A DNA stretch of 63,979 bases, counting the filler. It is 10 parts of 10 records of this genome, joined end to end, with 100 filler letters (N's around TTAATTAATTAA, not from the genome) between each part and the next. Parts side by side here need not be neighbours in the genome. Positions count along the whole stretch, not along the records: positions 48,630 to 60,847 come from SRR7504441_607; positions 60,948 to 63,979 come from SRR7504441_655; 8 more parts are not named here. One strand, written 5' to 3'. The position numbers and the translations under genes are program-made. Position 1 is the stretch's first letter; every line of letters begins with the position of its first letter. A model generated the notes under the pieces. It saw only the letters and a list, made by a program, of their open reading frames with translations. It had not been told where the DNA came from and ran no database searches. This document shows, piece by piece, positions 1-63,979 of the stretch.

Positions 1-1236
1 TTCTGCGAGCATCTTTTCTTGTCGTAATTCATCTATTGACTCTTGGAGTGACTCCAGCTGCCTTTTCAGGGCACTCATATCGTCATTATCATCTAAAGTC
101 ACGAGTTGCTCTACTTCATCATCACTGTCTTTTGACTTTGCTGCCTGTGAGTTTGCAGCTGCCTCTTTCTCCGCTGCTTTTCGCATTCTCACCATTTCTT
201 CCGCCGCCTTTTGTCGCTCAGCGGCTTCTGCAGCGATCGCTTCTTTTTCTGCAGCCTCTTGACGCTCCTCCTCCTGCTTTTCTAACCTATCGCTGATATC
301 CTTTTCTTCAGCAGCCCTGACCTTTGCATCCCACTCATCTTTGGCAGCCTTCTCTTTTGCAGCTTCTCTATCAGCCTCTGCCTTTTTCATCGCGGCCTCT
401 GCCAGCCTCGCGGCTTCGGCGTCTTCTTCTTCCTTCTTTCGACGCGCAGCTTCGGCTGCCTGCTTGCCTCTCAGCCGAGCTGCAGCAGCCTCCTCGCGCT
501 CTTTCTCCAGTCGGGCAGCTTCCTCCTCTGCCTGCAACCGAGCAGCTTCTGCCTGCAACCGAGCAGCTTCTGCCTCGGCCTGAGCTTTCGATCTGGCCTC
601 TTCTCTGGCCCTTGCTGCTTGAGCTGCCTCCTCTCTTTTCCGAGCCGCCTCCTCCGTCTGCTTTGCCTGCTCTTCAGCTGCTTGCTTGGTTGCCTGCTCG
701 GCTGCCTGCCTGGCCTGTTCCTCTTCAGCCTTGAATTTGGCCTCTTCTGCCGCCTTCACCCGCTTCCTCTCCTCTTCCTCTGCCTTCTCCCTCCTCCTCT
801 CCTCTTCTGCAGCACGTTTCCCCTCACGTATCGAGGCCCCTCGATTAAAGCTGGTTGATTCTCGCTCAGCCGCTCGTTCGGCCCTGCCAGCCCTTCCTGC
901 AACAGCAGCCCTCTCCGTAGCTGCCGGCTGTTCGGCAGCCGCTTCGGCTACGTCTGCCACTGTGGTGCCGCCGGCTGCCGCGACACTACTAGCTCCCTCT
1001 GTCGCCACCACGTCGACTTCACCCCCTGACGCGGCAGCAGGGTCACCAGTCGCTGTCGCGCCTGTAGCTGCCGCGCCAGTCGGCCTCTCCGACTCGCCGT
1101 CGTCCGCAGCTGCTGCTGTGCCTGCCAGGGCCTCCCCCTGGGCAGGCTGGCTGGCCGCTTGCTCGGGCTGCTGCTCTTCAGGAGGCTTGCTGGACTCTGT
1201 CGACAACGCTGCCTCCACAGGCAGATGCGTCGACAT
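1..1236 (-). CDS. Ala/Glu/Lys/Arg-rich low-complexity coiled-coil protein (3' end runs off the window)
   Basis: ATG at 1236 (MSTHLPVEAALSTESSKPPEEQQ...). The same frame is open at the window edge (...SALKRQLESLQESIDELRQEKMLAE). AEAARLQ-type coding repeats lie at ~517-580. Confidence 0.65.
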   Translation of the reverse strand, partial: MSTHLPVEAALSTESSKPPEEQQPEQAASQPAQGEALAGTAAAADDGESERPTGAAATGATATGDPAAASGGEVDVVATEGASSVAAAGGTTVADVAEAAAEQPAATERAAVAGRAGRAERAAERESTSFNRGASIREGKRAAEEERRREKAEEEERKRVKAAEEAKFKAEEEQARQAAEQATKQAAEEQAKQTEEAARKREEAAQAARAREEARSKAQAEAEAARLQAEAARLQAEEEAARLEKEREEAAAARLRGKQAAEAARRKKEEEDAEAARLAEAAMKKAEADREAAKEKAAKDEWDAKVRAAEEKDISDRLEKQEEERQEAAEKEAIAAEAAERQKAAEEMVRMRKAAEKEAAANSQAAKSKDSDDEVEQLVTLDDNDDMSALKRQLESLQESIDELRQEKMLAE

Positions 1237-24075: not shown

Positions 24076-25409
24076 ATGCGAGCCTTCGCCGTGGCCGGGC
24101 TGCTGGTGGGGCTGGCCTCTGGGCTGGACAACGGGGCCGCCCTGACGCCCCCGATGGCATGGTCCTCCTGGAACGCCTTCCACTGCGCGATCAACAGCTC
24201 GCTGCTCCTGCAGATAGCCGACGTCATGAACCGCTCCGGTATGCTCGCGGCCGGGTGCGCCCCAACTGCCGCCGGCTGTCTGACGGCAATGGAACAGCTA
24301 CGCGACCCTCAACATCGACGATTGCTGGCCTGCGCGCGCCCGTGATTCTGCCGGGCGAATCGTGCCAGATCCTTCAAAGTTCCCGGGTGGCATGGCCGAG
24401 TTCGGACGGGCGCTGCGGGCGCGGGGGGTGGGACTGGGGATCTACACCGCGCACGGGAACAAGACCTGCGCCGGGTTCCCGGGCTCTCTAGGGCACGAGT
24501 TGCAGACGCCGCGGCGTACAAGGCCTGGGGTGTTCAGTTTGTGAAGAACGACTGGTTTGACGGCTCAAACCGCCGCCGTTGAGGGCAGCGGTGCAGGTGC
24601 TGGCACCACGAGCCGGACCAGCGGGAGCACCTGGCTGCGTTCAATCGAATGCGCGACGCGCTCAACGGCACCGGTTCGAGCATGGTTCACTCGGTGCACT
24701 GGAACTATGAAGACACCCCAGGCCCAGGAGGCTGTGTCCGGTGTCACTCCACCCTGCGTGGAGCTTGGACTCACCGTAACGGTGCAGCGGCGATGACTGC
24801 CCGCTGCCGTTGACTGCCAACATGTGGCGAGTCGGGGGCGACATCGGGCCGAGCTGGGAGTCGGTGCTGCGGCTGCTGGACTTGAATGCGAAGCACAGCG
24901 CGGCGGCCGGCCCGGGCCAGTTTAACGACATGGACATGCTGGAGGTGGGCAACGGGATGACTGCGGCGCAGGATCGGGCCCACTTTAGCATATGGGCCAT
25001 CATGGCAAGTCCGTTGATCGCAGGGAACGATCTGAGATCGATGTCCGTGGCGACCGCCGCGATACTCACCAACAGACATGCCATTTCCGTTAACCAGGAC
25101 AGCCTGGCCCGGCAAGCCGTGCTCATCTGGCCGGCCGGCGCGGAGCCAAGTCCGCAGCAGGTCTGGGCGAAGCCGCTGAGCTCGCCTAGAAGCTCGTGGG
25201 CTTTGCTGTTGCTCAACAGAGTCAACCAGACAGGATCGATTAAGTTCCGGTTTGATCAGCTGCCCGGAGTTAACGGAAGCTCACGGTTTGATGTGCTGGA
25301 CCTGTGGCAAGAGGCCAAGGTTGTAGGGGCGGCGCGGCAAGCGGTGGAGGAGGCGGTGCCTGGGACTTCTGCGCAATTGTACAAGCTAGTTCCGAGTGAG
25401 TTAGAGTGA
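24076..25409 (+). CDS. Alpha-galactosidase / alpha-N-acetylgalactosaminidase, glycoside hydrolase family 27 (1-nt frameshift at ~24505)
   Basis: Signal peptide, then LDNGAALTPPMAWSSWNAF, LNIDDCW, PDPSKFPGG, TCAGFPGS, VKNDWC, ANMWRVGGDI, FNDMDMLEVGNG and HFSIWAIMASPLIAGNDL. Three GT-AG introns. Confidence 0.93.
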
Positions 25410-28865: not shown

Positions 28866-31453
28866 TTACGAAATTACACACTTGCACTCCGACGTATCCT
28901 TGTGGGTTCGTCCAGAGAATTCGAGCTCAGCGGGCTCCGTGTCATCTTGAAGCGAACGCTTTGCTAGCCTTGCCGGGGGCGGGGGGCTGGTCGATGTAAC
29001 CCTATCATCCACAACCCCGACCCCGTTTGCCATCGGCTTATCCGAGCCCTGTAGTCGACTGATCTGAGCGAGCAGCGCTGTTTCCCTTTGGGCGGCTTCA
29101 CTCCGGGTCTTCACAAGCTCTCTCCGTGTATCCGCCAGCGCCGCCACCTCCCGCTCCCCCGCTACTGCTCTGCCCATGCGGGCCGTCCGCGCTTCGGCGG
29201 CCTCTGCCCGGACCTGCTGCTCGACCGCGGACTCTGCTGCCGCAACAGCGTCCCGCTCGGCATCCTGGAGGAAGCCATGGACTTGCGCCAGCTCCTGCTC
29301 GGCCTCAGCAAGCTGCCGCTCGGCCCTGCCCTGCGCTATCTGCGCCTCGCGCAGCCGCTCGTCGGACTGCTCCGCCCGGGCCTCGGCCTCCGCAGTCGAC
29401 TGCCGGAGCTCGCCCACCGTGCTCCCGGCCGCGCTGGCTATCTGGGCCAGCTCTGCTTGCATCGTGTCGCCCTGCATGAGCGCATCGGTGAGCTGCGAGT
29501 TGTGCTCCTTGACCGAATCGAGCTCGGTACTCATCTGGCTTGATGCAGCCTCCAGCCGCTCCAGCTTGTCGCTGAGCTTCTTGGCCAGGCTCCGGTCTGT
29601 AGCAGCTCTCTCCTCGGCCATCTCAGCTTGTGCAGTCGCCGCATCCTTCGCCGCCGACTCGTGCCGTGCCGTCTCGGCGAGCCTGAGAGCCTGGCTCGCA
29701 TCCTCCGAGGCCCGGCTCAAGGCCTCGACAGCCCGCTCGGCCCTCAGCTGCTCGTCCTCGGCCATCTCTTCGGCGGCGTCGGCTCTTGCACGCTCCTCCG
29801 CCAGCCGAGTACGAGCCTCGACTGCTTGGCATTCGACTTCCAATAGCCGACTCCGCGACCTCACAGACTCTGTCCCTTCGGCTGACCTGCTCGCCACCAC
29901 GCGTGCTGCCAGCCTGGCCCGATCAGCCAGCGAGCGCTCGACTGCGACTAACTTCTTGGTGTCGGCCAGCTCTTCCTCTAGCTCGCGCCGTCGCTCGAGC
30001 GCGGCCTCCTGCCTGGCCCGGGCCTCGCGGGCCTGCTGCTTGGCGATCGCCAGGAGCGAGCTCAGCTCCGCCACCTCCGCTTGGTGCTGGGCGCTGTCCG
30101 GGTGGGTCTGGGGGGCCTGCTTGAGCTGGCTGGCCATCGCTGCCCGGTGCTGTTTGGCAACTTCCAGTTCCCTCTCAAGCGCAACGATCCTCGCACCGTG
30201 CTCGCGCTGCTCGGTCGCCATCTCGTGCCGTAGCCTGTGCACCTAGCCCGGCCGTCACGCCCCACTCTAGGCTCGCGCACCTCCGAGAGTAACTCGCGAG
30301 CGCTCAGCCGCCTCTCGGCCTGGCAGTAAGTCCTCTCGACAGCTTTGCACTGGTCGGCGAATTCGAGCGTATTCTGGGTGGCGTGGTACTGCATCCGGTG
30401 CGGCGAGCAGGTGACCAGCATAGTGGCCAAGCTGTTCCCCCCGAGCACGTCCCGGAGCACCCAGGTGAGTGTCGAGTCTGTCCAGCTGCCGTCAGCACCG
30501 CCCACAGCCTGGGCACCGCGGTACGGCGGGAGCATCTTGCCCTTTTTGTCCGAGAGCGCCTTGATCACCAGTCCAAGCGTCAACAGATCCATGTTGACCT
30601 GCAGACAGCTCACAGCCGCACTCGAGCCAGGCACCGCAGTGGTCTCATCAATTGCCCCTCCGGAGACCAGCGGCTCACTCCCCATTAAATCCACAAAGTA
30701 AAGCGCCGACTCGGACCTACTCGTGTCCTCGTATCGCCGTTGGAGCTTAAACACAATCACCGCGTGTGATCGCGAACTGACTGGATTCAGAGGCATCCAC
30801 GCGTACCTGCGCTTGTCCTGGCCCAGTCTGACCGCCTGGTGTGCCTCGGCCTCGCTCTCGACCACAACCTCCGCCATCATGCTCATGTGCCTGTTCTCCC
30901 GCCCGGCCAACTTGGGGCACTTGCCCTCGATGTCCGTGCTGAGCAAGTCGTAAACCTGGAATCTTACAACTCAGAGCTGAGCAAGCTGGCCGCCGACCTC
31001 GCCCTTGTAAACCTCGAAGAAGCACATGCTGCAACGGACCTGCTCCGCCGTCCCCTGCAGCGCCGCGAACAGATCGTGCAGCGCCCTGGGCACAATCCCG
31101 CGAAGATCCCCCTCCAACTCGCCCTCCTTACCGAACATGCTGTACGTCTTCCCGCCCCCGCTCTGCCCGTATGCGAACATCCCGGCGTTGAAGCCTCTGA
31201 GCACCTGTTTCACCAGCGGCCTGGCCGTCTGGTTGTAACAGCGCTCCTGGCTGGTGGCCTGGTCGAGCACCGTATTGAATCGGCGGTACACCTGCCCGCG
31301 CCGCCGGTCCTCGATTGCCTTCCCCCGGAGCTCGAAAGGAGCCATCCCCTGCGGCTCGTCCTGGTCGGTACTCTCCTCCAGTTCATTAAGCGGCCGGAAT
31401 CTCGCGACAACCGCCACCTCGCCCTCCAGCGCCGTCGGCTCCGAGTTGTCCAT
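28866..31453 (-). CDS. Kinesin (N-terminal motor, coiled-coil stalk, C-terminal CaaX box)
   Basis: VVARFRP, GFNAGMFAYGQSGGGKTYSM, FFEVY, NPVSSRSH, FVDLMGSE, PYRDSTLTWVLRDVLGGNS, TLEFA. Four short introns. Ends SECKCVIS*. Confidence 0.93.
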
Positions 31454-42409: not shown

Positions 42410-43192
42410 TTACATGTACTGAACCGGCCCACGCAATAGCCACACATCCACCTCCGCTTTGTCCTCAAACCCGCGGCGCGGGTCACCCGGCGACACAGTC
42501 TCAGCCTGCGCGAACCAGGTCGGGACCGCCCGACCCCACCGGCTGTAAGCCTCCGTGCGTCCTATCGCGGTATCGAAACAAACCAATGCAGTGCCATCTG
42601 GGCAAGTCGCCTCATGAATCGACCGGAGGAGTGGCTCTACCAGCAGCGGGTCGTACACCGTGTCCGCGCTCACCACAAGCGGCACCGGGCCCGACAGGGG
42701 CAGAGGGTCCCCCCATCTGTATGGCCGCACCGACACCATTTCGCGCTGGGCTGCGGTCAGATTGGCCGCAAGGTTTGCCTGGCAGCCCGGCAGGACGGCC
42801 GGCAGGTCCGTGAGCAGCACGCTGTGCCCACTGAGCGCGAGCACCAGCCCGGGCACCGCCCCCACCCCGCAGCCGAGCTCGAGCGCCGAAGCCCCGGGCT
42901 CCGGGGCCAGCCAGTGGGCGTTGTGAGCAATAAACCTGGCCGCCACCACCGCGCCGTCCCAGACCACCGCCCCAGTGGTCGAGCTGGCCTCAGTGGGCCC
43001 CGGGGCGCCATCGCACCCTGTGCCGCGGAGTGTAATCTGCTGAGTCAGCCTGAGTGTCCAGCCAGCTACCGTGAGCTCCAGCTGGCCGGCCGACCGCTCA
43101 ACCAGCGTCTCCGGGGCGAAGATCGGCTCGATCGCGCAGTCGTCGCTGCTGCTGGCCCCGTCCTGATCCTCGAGCGCGCTGCCCTGCTTCAT
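42410..43192 (-). CDS. METTL21/Methyltransf_16-family protein lysine methyltransferase
   Basis: TGAVVWDGAVV, ALELGCGVG, LTDLP, YRWG, SADTVYD. Confidence 0.9.
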   Translation of the reverse strand: MKQGSALEDQDGASSSDDCAIEPIFAPETLVERSAGQLELTVAGWTLRLTQQITLRGTGCDGAPGPTEASSTTGAVVWDGAVVAARFIAHNAHWLAPEPGASALELGCGVGAVPGLVLALSGHSVLLTDLPAVLPGCQANLAANLTAAQREMVSVRPYRWGDPLPLSGPVPLVVSADTVYDPLLVEPLLRSIHEATCPDGTALVCFDTAIGRTEAYSRWGRAVPTWFAQAETVSPGDPRRGFEDKAEVDVWLLRGPVQYM

Positions 43193-60663: not shown

Positions 60664-60996
60664 CGCTGCCCCCAACCGCTCAGCCCGTCAGCACCCAGCA
60701 CCCACCCGGTCGTGCCCGCCGCTGCAGTGGAAAGCTCAACGGAAAGTCTCCAGGGCGGTGCACGACCCAGTGTGCCGGCGCCTGCGAAAGCGGACGCGAA
60801 AGCGGCGGGGGAACCCGCGAGCATGCCCATCCGGCCGTGGCCGACTCNNNNNNNNNNNNNNNNNNNNNNNNNNNNNNNNNNNNNNNNNNNNTTAATTAAT
60901 TAANNNNNNNNNNNNNNNNNNNNNNNNNNNNNNNNNNNNNNNNNNNNCCACAGATTCTAGGGCTCGGCCGCTCTCAGCCACAGATTGTGTGCGCAC

Positions 60997-63966
60997 CGCG
61001 GCGGTGAGGTGGTGAGACATCCTCTCGCAAGCTTCTAGCACCAAAGGAAGCGAGTCGTCGTCGTATTTGGCAATCACTTGAAACGGCCCGAACACCTTAC
61101 CACGCAATCACGCCCGGAGAGAGCGACGCTGGGGCGGACCTCTGTACAGCAGGTGCTGAAATGCTCTTCGGACAGGAGCTGGTCTATAGGCACGAGCACT
61201 GCTGTCGGCTCTATGATGCCGTACTGGGGCGGGACGGTGTGCTCGCCTCCTGCAGCCAGCCTGCTCAGGCAGCACACGCCGGCGGTGCTAGCCACTGTAT
61301 AATTATAAAGTCTATACCCTGTAGCAGTACTATATAGTCTATACCCTGTAGCAGCACTATACAGTCTCTATACACTTTAGCAGCACTATACAGTCTCTAT
61401 ACCCTGTAGCAGCACTATTATATATAATCTACTAGTGACCCACCATTCCACTCTTTCCCTCCAAAAAGCAACTCAGCCCCTGGAATAGCCAGCAGACGCT
61501 CCGTATGTGCCAGCATCTCCTCTGTCGTATGTGACAGCACCGGCCCAATCGTGAGGTCCTCCAACTGCACAATCAAACAGTCAGCGCGACTCGCTTCAGT
61601 CCGTTAAAACCTGCCGCCGGCCAGCCAGCTGTTCAAGCCGAGGAATCAGCCCGGCGTTGTCCCAGTTCTCGTGCATAAACCTAAAAATAGCACAGCGATG
61701 GTCACAATCGCACATAATTGATCAATAAATCGGCACATGATCGACTGGGCCGAGCACTTTTGACCGGAACAGGCGTACGCGTCCTGGTCGCTCACCTGTA
61801 TTCCCTAATCAGGCAGCTGTGACGGCCACTATTCCCTAATCGGGCAGATGTGACGGCCATTATTCCCTAATCAGGCAGCTGTGACAGCCATTATGCCCTA
61901 ATAAGGCAGGCGTGACGGCCATTATTCCCTAATAAGGCAGGTGTGACTGACCCAAGCCACGTAGTCGACATCAGCCACATCAGGACCGAGGATTTTCCAG
62001 TCAAAACCAGCGTCCTCCACTCGCACCTGCCGCCGGCCGCTCTCAGCCACAAATCACGAGCCGCCGAGCGCTCTCAGGCCACAGATCACCTTGCCGTGCG
62101 TGTTGACCGCAAGCATCTCGGCCACCTCCGAGCTGCCAGTGAATTGAATCACCTGTCAGTTAATGTCCGTTAGTGTTAACTCTTGATTAATTAATAATTA
62201 ATCAGATGAGGCACCCTGTAATCTGCTCGCTCTATCACTGAGCTTGTAACAGCTCCTGTCGCGTTGAGCACCTGCAGCAGGTTGAAATTAATTAATAAAT
62301 AAATATTAATCGGGGCACGTCCATGTCGGAGCTCGGCATCCCGCAGTGGATAAGAAGCCGCACCTGCGCCACGCGAAATATGTTAACACGCTTGCCTTAT
62401 TCGGACGCGCTGTTAAGATACCAGCTGCTCCATCACGACAGTCACGTTGATCGCACTCTTGAGCATCGGCTTGTTTCCCATCATAAGCGCGCCGAGCAGC
62501 TGAGCATATGTTAACACGCTTGCCTTATTAGGCAGCGCTGTTAACATACCTGGAGTGTCGGGATTTCAAGGGGGAAGTTGAAAGGCGACACTATGGCAAC
62601 TGGCCCGAAGGGCCACCTGTCGCATTGAGTGATCACTCCCGCAACGGAAATCTATTTTTAGGATGGCATTACATAGGAGCTACTACTACTACTGCTATAA
62701 TGAGTGTTAATTAGTATATACTATCAAGTAGTTAGTCTATATAGTGTTATTACCTGTAGTTTGTGGCCATCTGACCGGCGTGATCTCCAGGCACGTTCGC
62801 TCCACCGGCGTTGAACCTGCTCCATCTAGTCAGCTGTGCCGTTACAGACACTCCTAGCGCACGCTGCTGTGCATCAACGGCAGTATTAATCATATAAATA
62901 TGATTCTATAAATAACATCGTGACTTGCCTCGGGTTGTCTCCACCGAAATTTTTCAGAAAATCCGCTGTCACCTGAACAAATCAAATCAGATCGCACCGC
63001 ACACTGCAGCCAGTTGCCGGTTAACGGATTTCCGTTGGGATAACGGTAACGGACTAATCGGGCGGTGCACGCACCTTGGTCTCGTACCAGGCTTGAAAGT
63101 AGCTCTTGGGCATCACCTGAGTCGATTCGAATTCAAATCCGACGGTTGGCCGGGCCAGCCACCCGCGCAATCAGGCAGGCGAAGAAGTCCATCACCTGTC
63201 AGTTGGGCTTAACTCTATTTTAATTCAATTCATCTCGCCTCGGGCTTGGCGAGCTCGTTCCCAGCTGCGTGGCAAATCTCGCCGTATGTGACGTACCTTC
63301 AACGGACAAATTAACGGCAAATCGGCTCACACCAGAGCAGTCAGTTACACTCATCCGCCAGCCGAGCGCCACAGCAGCCGACTATTCAAATTCAATTCGA
63401 ATTCAAATCAAATTCACAACACCAGCACTCACCGCTCCGGCTTGTACAGCGGGTTGTGCATACCGTACTTGGGCACGGCCTGGCCGTTAACTTCCGTTGG
63501 ATTTAACGGAATCCAACGGCACCTGCGCCGACCGGACGAAAGCGTCCAGTTCGTCGCCTCTGGTGTCGGGGACCAGGCAAAACTCCTCCCCTGGCCAACC
63601 TCGGCGGCTGGGGCCAACGGCAATACCGTTGAGCGGATCCAACACGCGGAACTGCTGCGCCGTGTCGGTCCAGCGACCATCCACCAGGTTGAGCACCTGT
63701 TGGTTGCTCAACGGACTTCCAACGGCAGCCGAGCCCCCTCAGGCCGGCCAACAGGCAACCGGCCCCCACCCCCCTTAGATGGCACCTTGTGCGGAGAACC
63801 GGCCGACATTTCCGTTGGATTGACTGTTGCCCAGCTCGGGGTGGCCACCTGCCGCCCGATCAGGCAACTGTGACGTCCCGGGCCCGACCGTTGCGGGGAA
63901 GCCGTCGCCCGGTGCCGCCCGTCGGCTGAAGGCTCGGGCGCCGCGGAGAGGAGCGGCGCGCCACAT
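60997..63966 (-). CDS. ALDH12: ALDH12-type delta-1-pyrroline-5-carboxylate (glutamate semialdehyde) dehydrogenase, mitochondrial; 21 exons, 3' truncated
   Basis: Manual splicing of 21 exons (33-121 nt, 1410 nt total) gives one open frame. It reads transit peptide MWRAAPLRGARAFSR, then LDPLNGE, HNPLYKPERY, RWPFGPVAIVSPFNFPLEIP, FTGSS, VEDAGFDWKILGPD, DQDAYACSGQKCSAQS (catalytic Cys), EVFGPFQ and ERMSHHLTAA. Confidence 0.95.
61310..61420. repeat. Tandem repeat, 27-29 nt unit x4 (TCTATACCCTGTAGCAGCACTATACAG), inside ALDH12 intron 19
   Basis: Read directly from the sequence. Confidence 0.9.
61799..61947. repeat. Tandem repeat, 31-nt unit x~5 (TATTCCCTAATCAGGCAGCTGTGACGGCCAT), filling ALDH12 intron 16
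   Basis: Read directly from the sequence. The array makes up nearly the whole 156-nt intron (61796-61951). Confidence 0.92.
62364..62549 (-). repeat. Pair of near-identical palindromic introns (62500-62549 and 62364-62421), introner-like
   Basis: 40 of the first 44 nt from the GT donor are identical. Intron 11 has a 10-bp terminal inverted repeat TATGTTAACA...TGTTAACATA. Confidence 0.85.
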
Positions 63967-63979
63967 TTCCGTTAGCTGC

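Follow-up and report, generated by a model that had tools for sequence, protein, structure and literature searches.

We analysed a stretch of DNA of 63,979 nucleotides (the window), consisting of 10 contigs of one bin joined by N44-ttaattaattaa-N44 spacers, and focused on the last of these, contig 10 (positions 60948-63979, 3032 nt), which is filled by a minus-strand gene identified by homology as ALDH12, an aldehyde dehydrogenase. The gene is split by 21 introns, many of which resemble one another, and its protosplice sites are nearly saturated with them. We suggest that most of these introns arose through a local burst of gain by self-copying, introner-like mini-introns, in a gene of the bin's marine protist or of a very close relative; we assign this reading a probability of about one half.

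Gene model and identity

A six-frame scan of contig 10 for open reading frames (ORFs) found no long one, and many minus-strand fragments that resemble aldehyde dehydrogenase. Searching with one exon ORF (P0001) returned 31 homologues among 60 candidates, mostly full-length (510-610 aa). We then aligned the ALDH12 homologues P0003, P0005 and P0014 to the contig with our own protein-to-genome spliced aligner, which allows GT-AG and GC-AG introns in all three phases. Each reference yielded the identical set of 19 internal introns; one 40-nt intron at the 5' end (I01) and one cut by the end of the contig (I21) complete the 21. I01 has no reference-protein support, and was accepted because its removal brings the ATG exon into frame. 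Spliced from the ATG at 63966, the coding sequence (CDS) is 1407 nt long (469 codons) and free of stops, with 21 exons of 33-121 nt (mean 67.0) and 15 introns per kb. A first-pass annotation, made from the bare sequence, had proposed just such a gene, with 21 introns, exons averaging 67 nt and about 15 introns per kb of CDS, hidden on a contig almost devoid of ORFs; the spliced alignments and the stop-free CDS confirm it. The contig stops short of the gene's 3' end, by roughly 70 codons.

The 20 complete introns measure 36-197 nt (median 57), with 13 of them between 36 and 63 nt. The range given earlier, 36-194 nt, agrees with ours, since 194 nt is the length of I19 when the CAG acceptor 3 nt upstream is used in its CAGGAG tandem acceptor. 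Nineteen of the 21 introns have GT-AG borders and two GC-AG, and 15/21 are in phase 0. The GC content is 0.50 for introns overall versus 0.60 for exons, most introns being AT-richer than the exons; single introns range from 0.32 to 0.72, and six are GC-rich. Retention of any one complete intron would cause a frame shift or a stop in 19 of 20 cases, I03 (36 nt) being the sole in-frame, stop-free one.

The contig-10 product has 315 identities with P0005 over 445 aligned positions (71%, slightly below the identity of the true exons, because the alignment ran on into the cut last intron). P0005 in turn gives a full-length match in PDB to 6d97, "Aldehyde dehydrogenase 12" from maize (E 1.5e-220), its sole match at E <= 1e-30, and exon 19 alone finds 6d97 at E 5e-8, its sole match at E <= 0.01. 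Under the AGNC family rule, as worded in PMC3280228, members of ALDH12 share over 40% identity with established members; the value here is 71%, measured against P0005, itself tied to 6d97. Of the 31 homologues that exon 19 retrieved, 29 carry the aldehyde dehydrogenase domain PF00171; among the exon ORFs, one of ten gave a match to it (E 6e-4; 18.9 bits, under the 23-bit cut-off), single-exon ORFs being too short. FTGSS (as QFTGSS), EDAGFDWK and GQKCSAQS all occur in the spliced translation, aligned with the matching segments of relatives; we take GQKCSAQS to hold the catalytic Cys, EDAGFDWK the catalytic Glu and QFTGSS the NAD-binding segment. Judged by this homology, the gene is ALDH12/P5CDH, the plant-type P5C dehydrogenase of proline breakdown. 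Its first exon probably encodes a mitochondrial presequence, and the enzyme would then be mitochondrial (Table 1).

Two public DNA runs from two studies, X1 and X2, contain 5-6% of the words of contig 10. A public-run contig matches exactly over 162 nt, across exon 20 and both its intron borders, and the other run (X2) contains a 245-nt piece that covers exon 20 together with I20, where it has small indels, and part of I19. X1, a marine metagenome, includes a 263-nt contig, about 95% identical, that extends from the 5' part of I19 through exon 19 and I18 into exon 18. In exon 19, the seven listed differences are all synonymous third-position changes in the proposed frame, so that this exon is under purifying selection in that frame; the variant also retains I18 and the 5' part of I19, and a diverged lineage thus keeps these introns. 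Taken with the concordant references, the stop-free CDS and the effect of intron retention, these comparisons show that the gene is real and under selection, and we infer that the spliceosome removes its introns and restores the conserved frame.

Table 1. Coordinates of the ALDH12 gene of contig 10, its first exon and its introns (I01-I21), counted along the window
Feature	Position	Strand	Description	Basis
ALDH12 gene	60948..63966	-	21 exons from ATG at 63966	spliced alignments
Exon 1	63889..63966	-	78 nt; Arg/Ala-rich N-terminus (MWRAAPLRGARAFSRRAAPGDGFPAT)	translation
I01	63849..63888	-	40 nt, GC 0.72; 18/20 module in common with the I16 tandem unit	
I02	63697..63785	-	89 nt, phase 0	spliced alignment
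I03	63591..63626	-	36 nt, phase 1; homologues without residues there	spliced alignment
I04	63480..63522	-	43 nt; near-perfect hairpin of CCGTTGG/CCAACGG words; minimum free energy -20.0, z -4.7	
I05	63297..63432	-	136 nt; 11-nt tandem array; 15-mer in common with I07	
I06	63196..63238	-	43 nt, GC-AG, GC 0.37	spliced alignment
I07	63117..63162	-	46 nt	spliced alignment
I08	62973..63074	-	102 nt	spliced alignment
I09	62817..62928	-	112 nt, GC-AG (GCAAGT)	spliced alignment
I10	62617..62753	-	137 nt, GC 0.35	spliced alignment
I11	62500..62549	-	50 nt; palindromic hairpin (z -6.6); paralogue of I12, 91% over 44 nt	
I12	62364..62421	-	58 nt; paralogue of I11, 78 nt off across a conserved exon	
I13	62272..62318	-	47 nt, GC 0.32	spliced alignment
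I14	62153..62214	-	62 nt, GC 0.32	spliced alignment
I15	62027..62089	-	63 nt; just under two copies of a 31-nt unit also in I21	
I16	61796..61951	-	156 nt; 31-nt unit x4.8, akin to modules in I01, I11 and I12	
I17	61681..61736	-	56 nt	spliced alignment
I18	61565..61610	-	46 nt	spliced alignment
I19	61247..61443	-	197 nt (194 with the upstream CAG acceptor); 29-nt unit x3.8	
I20	61096..61139	-	44 nt, GC 0.68	spliced alignment
I21	60948..60996	-	cut by contig end; repeats of the I15 unit	reference homology stops after HLTAA

Kinship of the introns and the sites they occupy

We compared the introns pairwise after trimming 6 bases from each end, in 420 comparisons (210 pairs, both orientations) with 100 shuffles, and obtained a score of at least 22 in 12 of them. 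The closest pair, I11/I12, is identical at 35 of 38 core bases (z 23.6); then come I15/I21 (z 10.4), I11/I16 (z 10.0), I01/I16 (18/20 bases, z 9.2), I12/I16 (z 7.7), I08/I10 and I05/I07 (z 6.4 for each) and I02/I15 (z 5.3). For these pairs, the observed score was matched by none of the 100 shuffles. About half of the introns have a module in common with another intron of the gene; the modules are small (15-44 nt), and the similar pairs are all in gene orientation. Between I11 and I12 lies a 78-nt exon, which encodes a segment that every homologue conserves; the pair therefore represents one intron in two copies, and not a duplication of part of the gene. Moreover, four introns contain tandem arrays within these 3 kb, with units of 31 nt in I16, 29 nt in I19, 31 nt in I15 and 11 nt in I05, and both I04 and I11 form end-to-end hairpins. 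Two further candidate features were tried and rejected: a universal hairpin fold (z < -2 in only 4/21 introns) and gain by tandem duplication of exon sequence (no intron above background against the CDS, best local scores 12-24).

The sites of insertion are strongly patterned. Of 20 introns, G precedes 18, GT follows 15 and GTG follows 12, the frequency of GTG after any position of the whole CDS being 0.025. The spliced mRNA has 8 AGGT and 17 GGTG sites, of which 7 and 11, respectively, are exon junctions; random placement gives P values of about 3e-13 and 2e-18. The protosplice sites of this gene are therefore near saturation with introns. Six uninterrupted ORFs from the other contigs of the bin contain 29 AGGT and 92 GGTG sites, none of which has an intron.

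We propose a local burst in which short modules of introns, about 30-50 nt long, spread by copying to further (A)G|GT(G) protosplice sites within the gene; most of the introns would stem from it, and would not be ancient. Some copies would have carried hairpin ends, and some would later have expanded into the 29-31-nt tandem arrays. The copying step, which we infer, may have followed either of two routes: insertion of DNA elements like miniature inverted-repeat transposable elements (MITEs), as for introners, or reverse splicing, whereby an intron, once excised, inserts into the transcript it came from, with subsequent reverse transcription and recombination. The spliceosome would take out all of the introns, whichever their route, and leave the conserved reading frame intact. 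In the available sequence the copies are confined to one gene, which favours a process acting in cis or regionally. A narrower version, in which ALDH12 was colonised near saturation by its own 40-60-nt introns copied in cis into almost every AG|GT site of the transcript or gene (e.g., by reverse splicing and then recombination with complementary DNA), unlike genome-wide transposon-driven introners, is possible, and we give it only a minor share of our confidence.

Alternatively, the introns could be ancestral: the genome would have lost its introns elsewhere, whereas ALDH12 would have kept an old, intron-rich architecture. In plants, ALDH12 genes have multiple exons. According to PMC10888605, an intron-exon organisation is known for Arabidopsis; the same paper describes a diatom ALDH12 gene with one intron. 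We scanned JGI metagenome contigs with P0005, which confirmed 577 stretches, and used the best 80, whose alignments to the spliced protein show 49-68% identity. Introns were called in 16 of these 80 loci (14 judged credible, 2 doubtful), never more than three per locus. The credible calls fall at eight positions (contig-10 residue/phase): 38/1, 60/1, 119/0, 151/0, 161/1, 172/0, 229/0 and 294/0. None of the 21 intron positions of contig 10 coincides exactly with any of these eight, and two come within two codons of one. In run X2, moreover, contigs of relatives join exons 16, 17 and 18 directly, without I16 and I17, the break falling exactly at 61680/61681, the border of I17. The similarity of I11 and I12 is likewise too high for an ancient origin, because unconstrained intron sequence decays fast, and near-saturated AGGT sites are not expected from simple retention. 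We consider wholesale retention improbable. The comparison with ALDH12 orthologues, which had been suggested as a check in the first-pass annotation, speaks for gain through the lack of exact sharing and is blunted by the two near misses and by how few introns the related loci have.

Two observations on these relatives may be added. At 61657-61791, the exon of the catalytic cysteine is matched at 87-90% by short contigs from other organisms in X1 and X2; these contigs run directly into the adjoining exons, and the ALDH12 of these organisms lacks I16 and I17. When the 80 related loci were compared with the window by blastn, only short conserved-exon matches were found, at no more than 86%, and none of the loci is from the same organism.

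Host of the contig and the rest of the bin

The nine other contigs carry genes of a different architecture, with 0-3 introns per kb versus 15 per kb in ALDH12. Pfam searches of their long ORFs identified an IFT140 TPR domain (409 aa), a choline kinase (451 aa) and an Xaa-Pro aminopeptidase (556 aa), along with a kinesin, a DSPc-LRR protein, an ankyrin protein, a DHHC protein, a lysine methyltransferase, a JmjC/cupin protein, an amino-acid transporter and an alpha-galactosidase. Several genes form uninterrupted ORFs of 1.2-2.1 kb, and IFT140 (contig 2) has two introns, of 46 and 37 nt, agreed by 4/4 references, in about 3.2 kb; both facts had been noted before and hold. In the aminopeptidase gene, two introns of about 40-43 nt lie close to the 3' end, with exact borders that vary by reference. 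In the kinesin motor gene (contig 5, minus strand, about 30950-30995), a 42-nt in-frame GT-AG intron (GTCGGC...TTCCAG) spans the stop at 30971-30973, so that no unusual genetic code is needed. Three introns, of 42-59 nt, interrupt the alpha-galactosidase gene (contig 4, plus strand); the borders of the third (about 24734-24787) are uncertain and, as drawn, do not restore the frame. These eight bin introns measure 37-59 nt, with a GC content of 0.57-0.78. It had been remarked that the introns of contig 10 are longer and often AT-richer than those elsewhere, and the two ranges (36-197 nt, GC 0.32-0.72 in ALDH12) bear this out.

This difference in introns would also be expected if the contig had been mis-binned, and came from another eukaryote whose genes are uniformly intron-dense. 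Contigs of 3 kb, the size of contig 10, are those for which binning is least reliable. Indeed, the tetranucleotide profile of the whole contig is outlying (r = 0.62-0.70 versus 0.75-0.97 among the other contigs). The exons taken alone reach r = 0.84, equal to the average for 1.4-kb pieces drawn at random from the bin, whereas the introns alone give r = 0.29, under the lowest of 200 random bin pieces. The oddity of the contig is therefore due to its introns only; the tetranucleotide check proposed in the first-pass annotation sets the contig apart as a whole and puts its exons in line with the bin. Relative synonymous codon usage of the exons correlates with that of the bin genes at r = 0.841, mid-range for the bin itself (0.744-0.925 on leaving out one gene at a time), whereas 53 of 54 control ALDH12 coding sequences from other organisms remain at r <= 0.66. 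The remaining control, L016, gives r = 0.857, as bin-like as contig 10, so that codon usage is no unique fingerprint, and such a match can occur without common origin. L016 is a metagenome locus of 2629 nt with an intronless ALDH12, 55% identical to that of contig 10; its source may be a related GC-rich protist, or it may represent a second ALDH12 in the same lineage.

The style of the introns also links contig 10 to the bin. GTGC-type 5' splice sites are present in 7/21 of its introns and in 3/8 bin introns, and introns of about 40 nt occur in both, including GC-rich ones of 36-46 nt on contig 10 (I01, I03 and I20). The words AACGG/CCGTT reach 11.2 per kb in contig-10 introns and 8.3 in bin introns, versus 0.8-2.8 in coding sequence. 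From composition and intron style together we conclude that the ALDH12 gene comes from the same organism as the bin or from a very close relative. Mis-binning is unlikely, and the suggestion that the contig belongs to a different organism is disfavoured by exon codon usage, exon tetranucleotides and intron style alike, which a close relative of equal composition could still match.

Across contigs 2, 4, 5, 9 and 10, introns often start with GTGCGC or GTGCC and not with the usual GTAAGT or GTGAGT, and AACGG/CCGTT is about tenfold enriched in them versus coding sequence. Recognition of the 5' site by the host's U1 small nuclear RNA (snRNA), and of the branch site, may be unusual. An Rfam search of the window gave no match, neither snRNA nor ribosomal RNA. 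As for the identity of the host, the best match of the bin's Xaa-Pro aminopeptidase is at 57% and the others at no more than 53%, the named ones (44-50%) being from Symbiodinium, pelagophytes, fungi and animals. The 120 matches listed include no green alga, and on these matches we reject a member of the Mamiellales as the source of the bin.

A contig of the bin's own organism could also stem from a compositionally distinct part of a chromosome where every gene is interrupted by numerous small AT-rich introns, on the model of BOC1, the region of the big outlier chromosome of Mamiellales that sets a published precedent for small AT-rich introns (PMC3491373). The intron density would then characterise the region and not this gene. 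Contig 10 has the lowest GC content of the ten (0.544 versus 0.575-0.679), most of its complete introns are of the size class 36-63 nt, and most are AT-richer than the exons. The bin, however, is not from Mamiellales. The exons of contig 10 have a bin-like composition, whereas in BOC1 the GC content of coding sequence is lowered too; moreover, conserved motifs are reported to be absent from BOC1 introns, whereas modules recur in about half of those found here (PMC3491373, for both BOC1 traits). With a single gene visible, a regional effect would be undetectable either way. We regard such a compartment as possible but not probable, somewhat ahead of mis-binning; it is compatible with a local burst, and the two are not exclusive.

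Besides the outlying profile of the whole contig and the bin-like codon usage of L016, several points weigh against a local burst by copying. Six intron modules have no copy in the other 61 kb of the window (2-6 mismatches allowed), and the window therefore does not support a genome-wide introner family. No consistent target-site duplication was seen by eye; the direct repeats at the borders are 3-6 nt long and overlap the AG|GT consensus. Folds with z < -2 occur in 4/21 introns versus 2/20 exon controls. The comparison with the bin is limited to eight introns, three of them with uncertain exact borders, and the GTG contrast accordingly rests on a small sample (12/20 versus 1/8 bin introns, Fisher P = 0.038), the corresponding contrast for GT giving P = 0.09. 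As to ancestry, the near misses (151/0 versus 153/0 and 294/0 versus 292/0) are two codons apart, and the related loci, intron-poor and in many cases probably transcripts, make a weak test; the comparison covered 80 environmental loci, with plant and green-algal ALDH12 genes outside it. Of the explanations put forward in the first-pass annotation, the local burst of intron gain is nonetheless the one favoured by paralogous introns, near-saturated protosplice sites and the absence of exact position sharing, which argue for copying and fall short of proving it.

Elsewhere in the window, the alpha-galactosidase gene shows a one-base frame shift at 24478-24490 (plus strand), between ...GSLGHE and DAAAYKAWGVQFVKNDW, without a plausible intron; this could be an assembly indel, a pseudogene or a tiny unrecognised intron. 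A Pfam search of 36 short ORFs upstream of the alpha-galactosidase ORF found one further exon. On contig 8 (41477-43414, minus strand), the lysine-methyltransferase and DHHC palmitoyltransferase ORFs lie in one frame with a single stop between them (42410-42412), which points to very tight gene spacing or to one fused transcript unit. The end of contig 6 (36897-37016) is a Gly/Tyr-rich tandem repeat of coding type (GGCGGCGGCTACGGC units, periods 15-39) that runs up to the contig end. The first 1000 nt of contig 1 (1-1000) are asymmetric between strands (GC skew -0.31, AT skew -0.52), with 15-30-nt tandem repeats at 338-810, and contig 1 has no Pfam match despite ORFs of up to 757 aa.

Comparison with known systems

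The origin of spliceosomal introns is an old open question, and the known introners are genome-wide, transposon-like families. This locus would show the multiplication of introns at the scale of one gene, in a genome that otherwise has 0-3 per kb; if the copies prove confined to the gene or its region, this would suggest copying in cis, with the protosplice site as target. When eukaryotic metagenome-assembled genomes are annotated by ORFs, genes of this kind go unseen, and their introns make the contig look compositionally foreign.

Introners are described as repeat introns in Micromonas pusilla, Aureococcus, dinoflagellates, fungi and others (PMC3879977, PMC9860276, PMC11282704), and as MITE-like DNA insertions in two of these accounts (PMC9860276, PMC11282704), reverse splicing having once been proposed for Micromonas (PMC3879977). 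Like introners, the introns of contig 10 include sequence-similar ones at different positions (I11 and I12, I15 and I21, I01 and I16, I05 and I07, and others, all far above shuffles), and these positions are not shared with the orthologues compared, as judged at the eight credible positions in the 80 related loci. Some, such as I04 and I11, have hairpin ends that recall the inverted repeats of MITEs, the splice signals lie at or beside the insertion site, the host is aquatic, and the similar pairs are in gene orientation. Unlike introners, the copies lie within one gene, with none in 61 kb holding at least 12 other genes; the modules are very small (15-44 nt in common, in introns of 40-60 nt); a consistent target-site duplication was not seen by eye; and, at 15 introns per kb, most AGGT sites of the gene are filled.

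Among published cases of a compartment dense in introns within a genome poor in them, the closest to contig 10 is BOC1, whose genes are described as "split by many small (40 to 65 bp) AT-rich introns", without conserved motifs and with an intron content tenfold that of the rest of the genome (PMC3491373). The likeness is partial, and lies in an intron-poor, GC-rich protist genome with a stretch of lower GC content, where a gene is split by many small introns, mostly of 36-63 nt and AT-richer than the exons; six of the introns, however, are GC-rich. The differences are a host outside Mamiellales by best protein matches, an unshifted exon composition, repeated modules in the introns and a single visible gene.

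Compared with ALDH12 itself (maize 6d97), the contig-10 gene has the conserved FTGSS, EDAGFDWK and GQKCSAQS, its C-terminus lying outside the contig. Its architecture differs, with 21 introns here versus 0-3 in the 80 related environmental loci and versus the one described for the diatom gene (PMC10888605). Repeat introns and intron-dense compartments are thus already known; what is unusual is the scale and place of the contig-10 case: mini-introns of 40-60 nt reach 15 per kb, sister copies lie 78 nt from each other, and in a genome otherwise poor in introns one gene has most of its AGGT sites filled.

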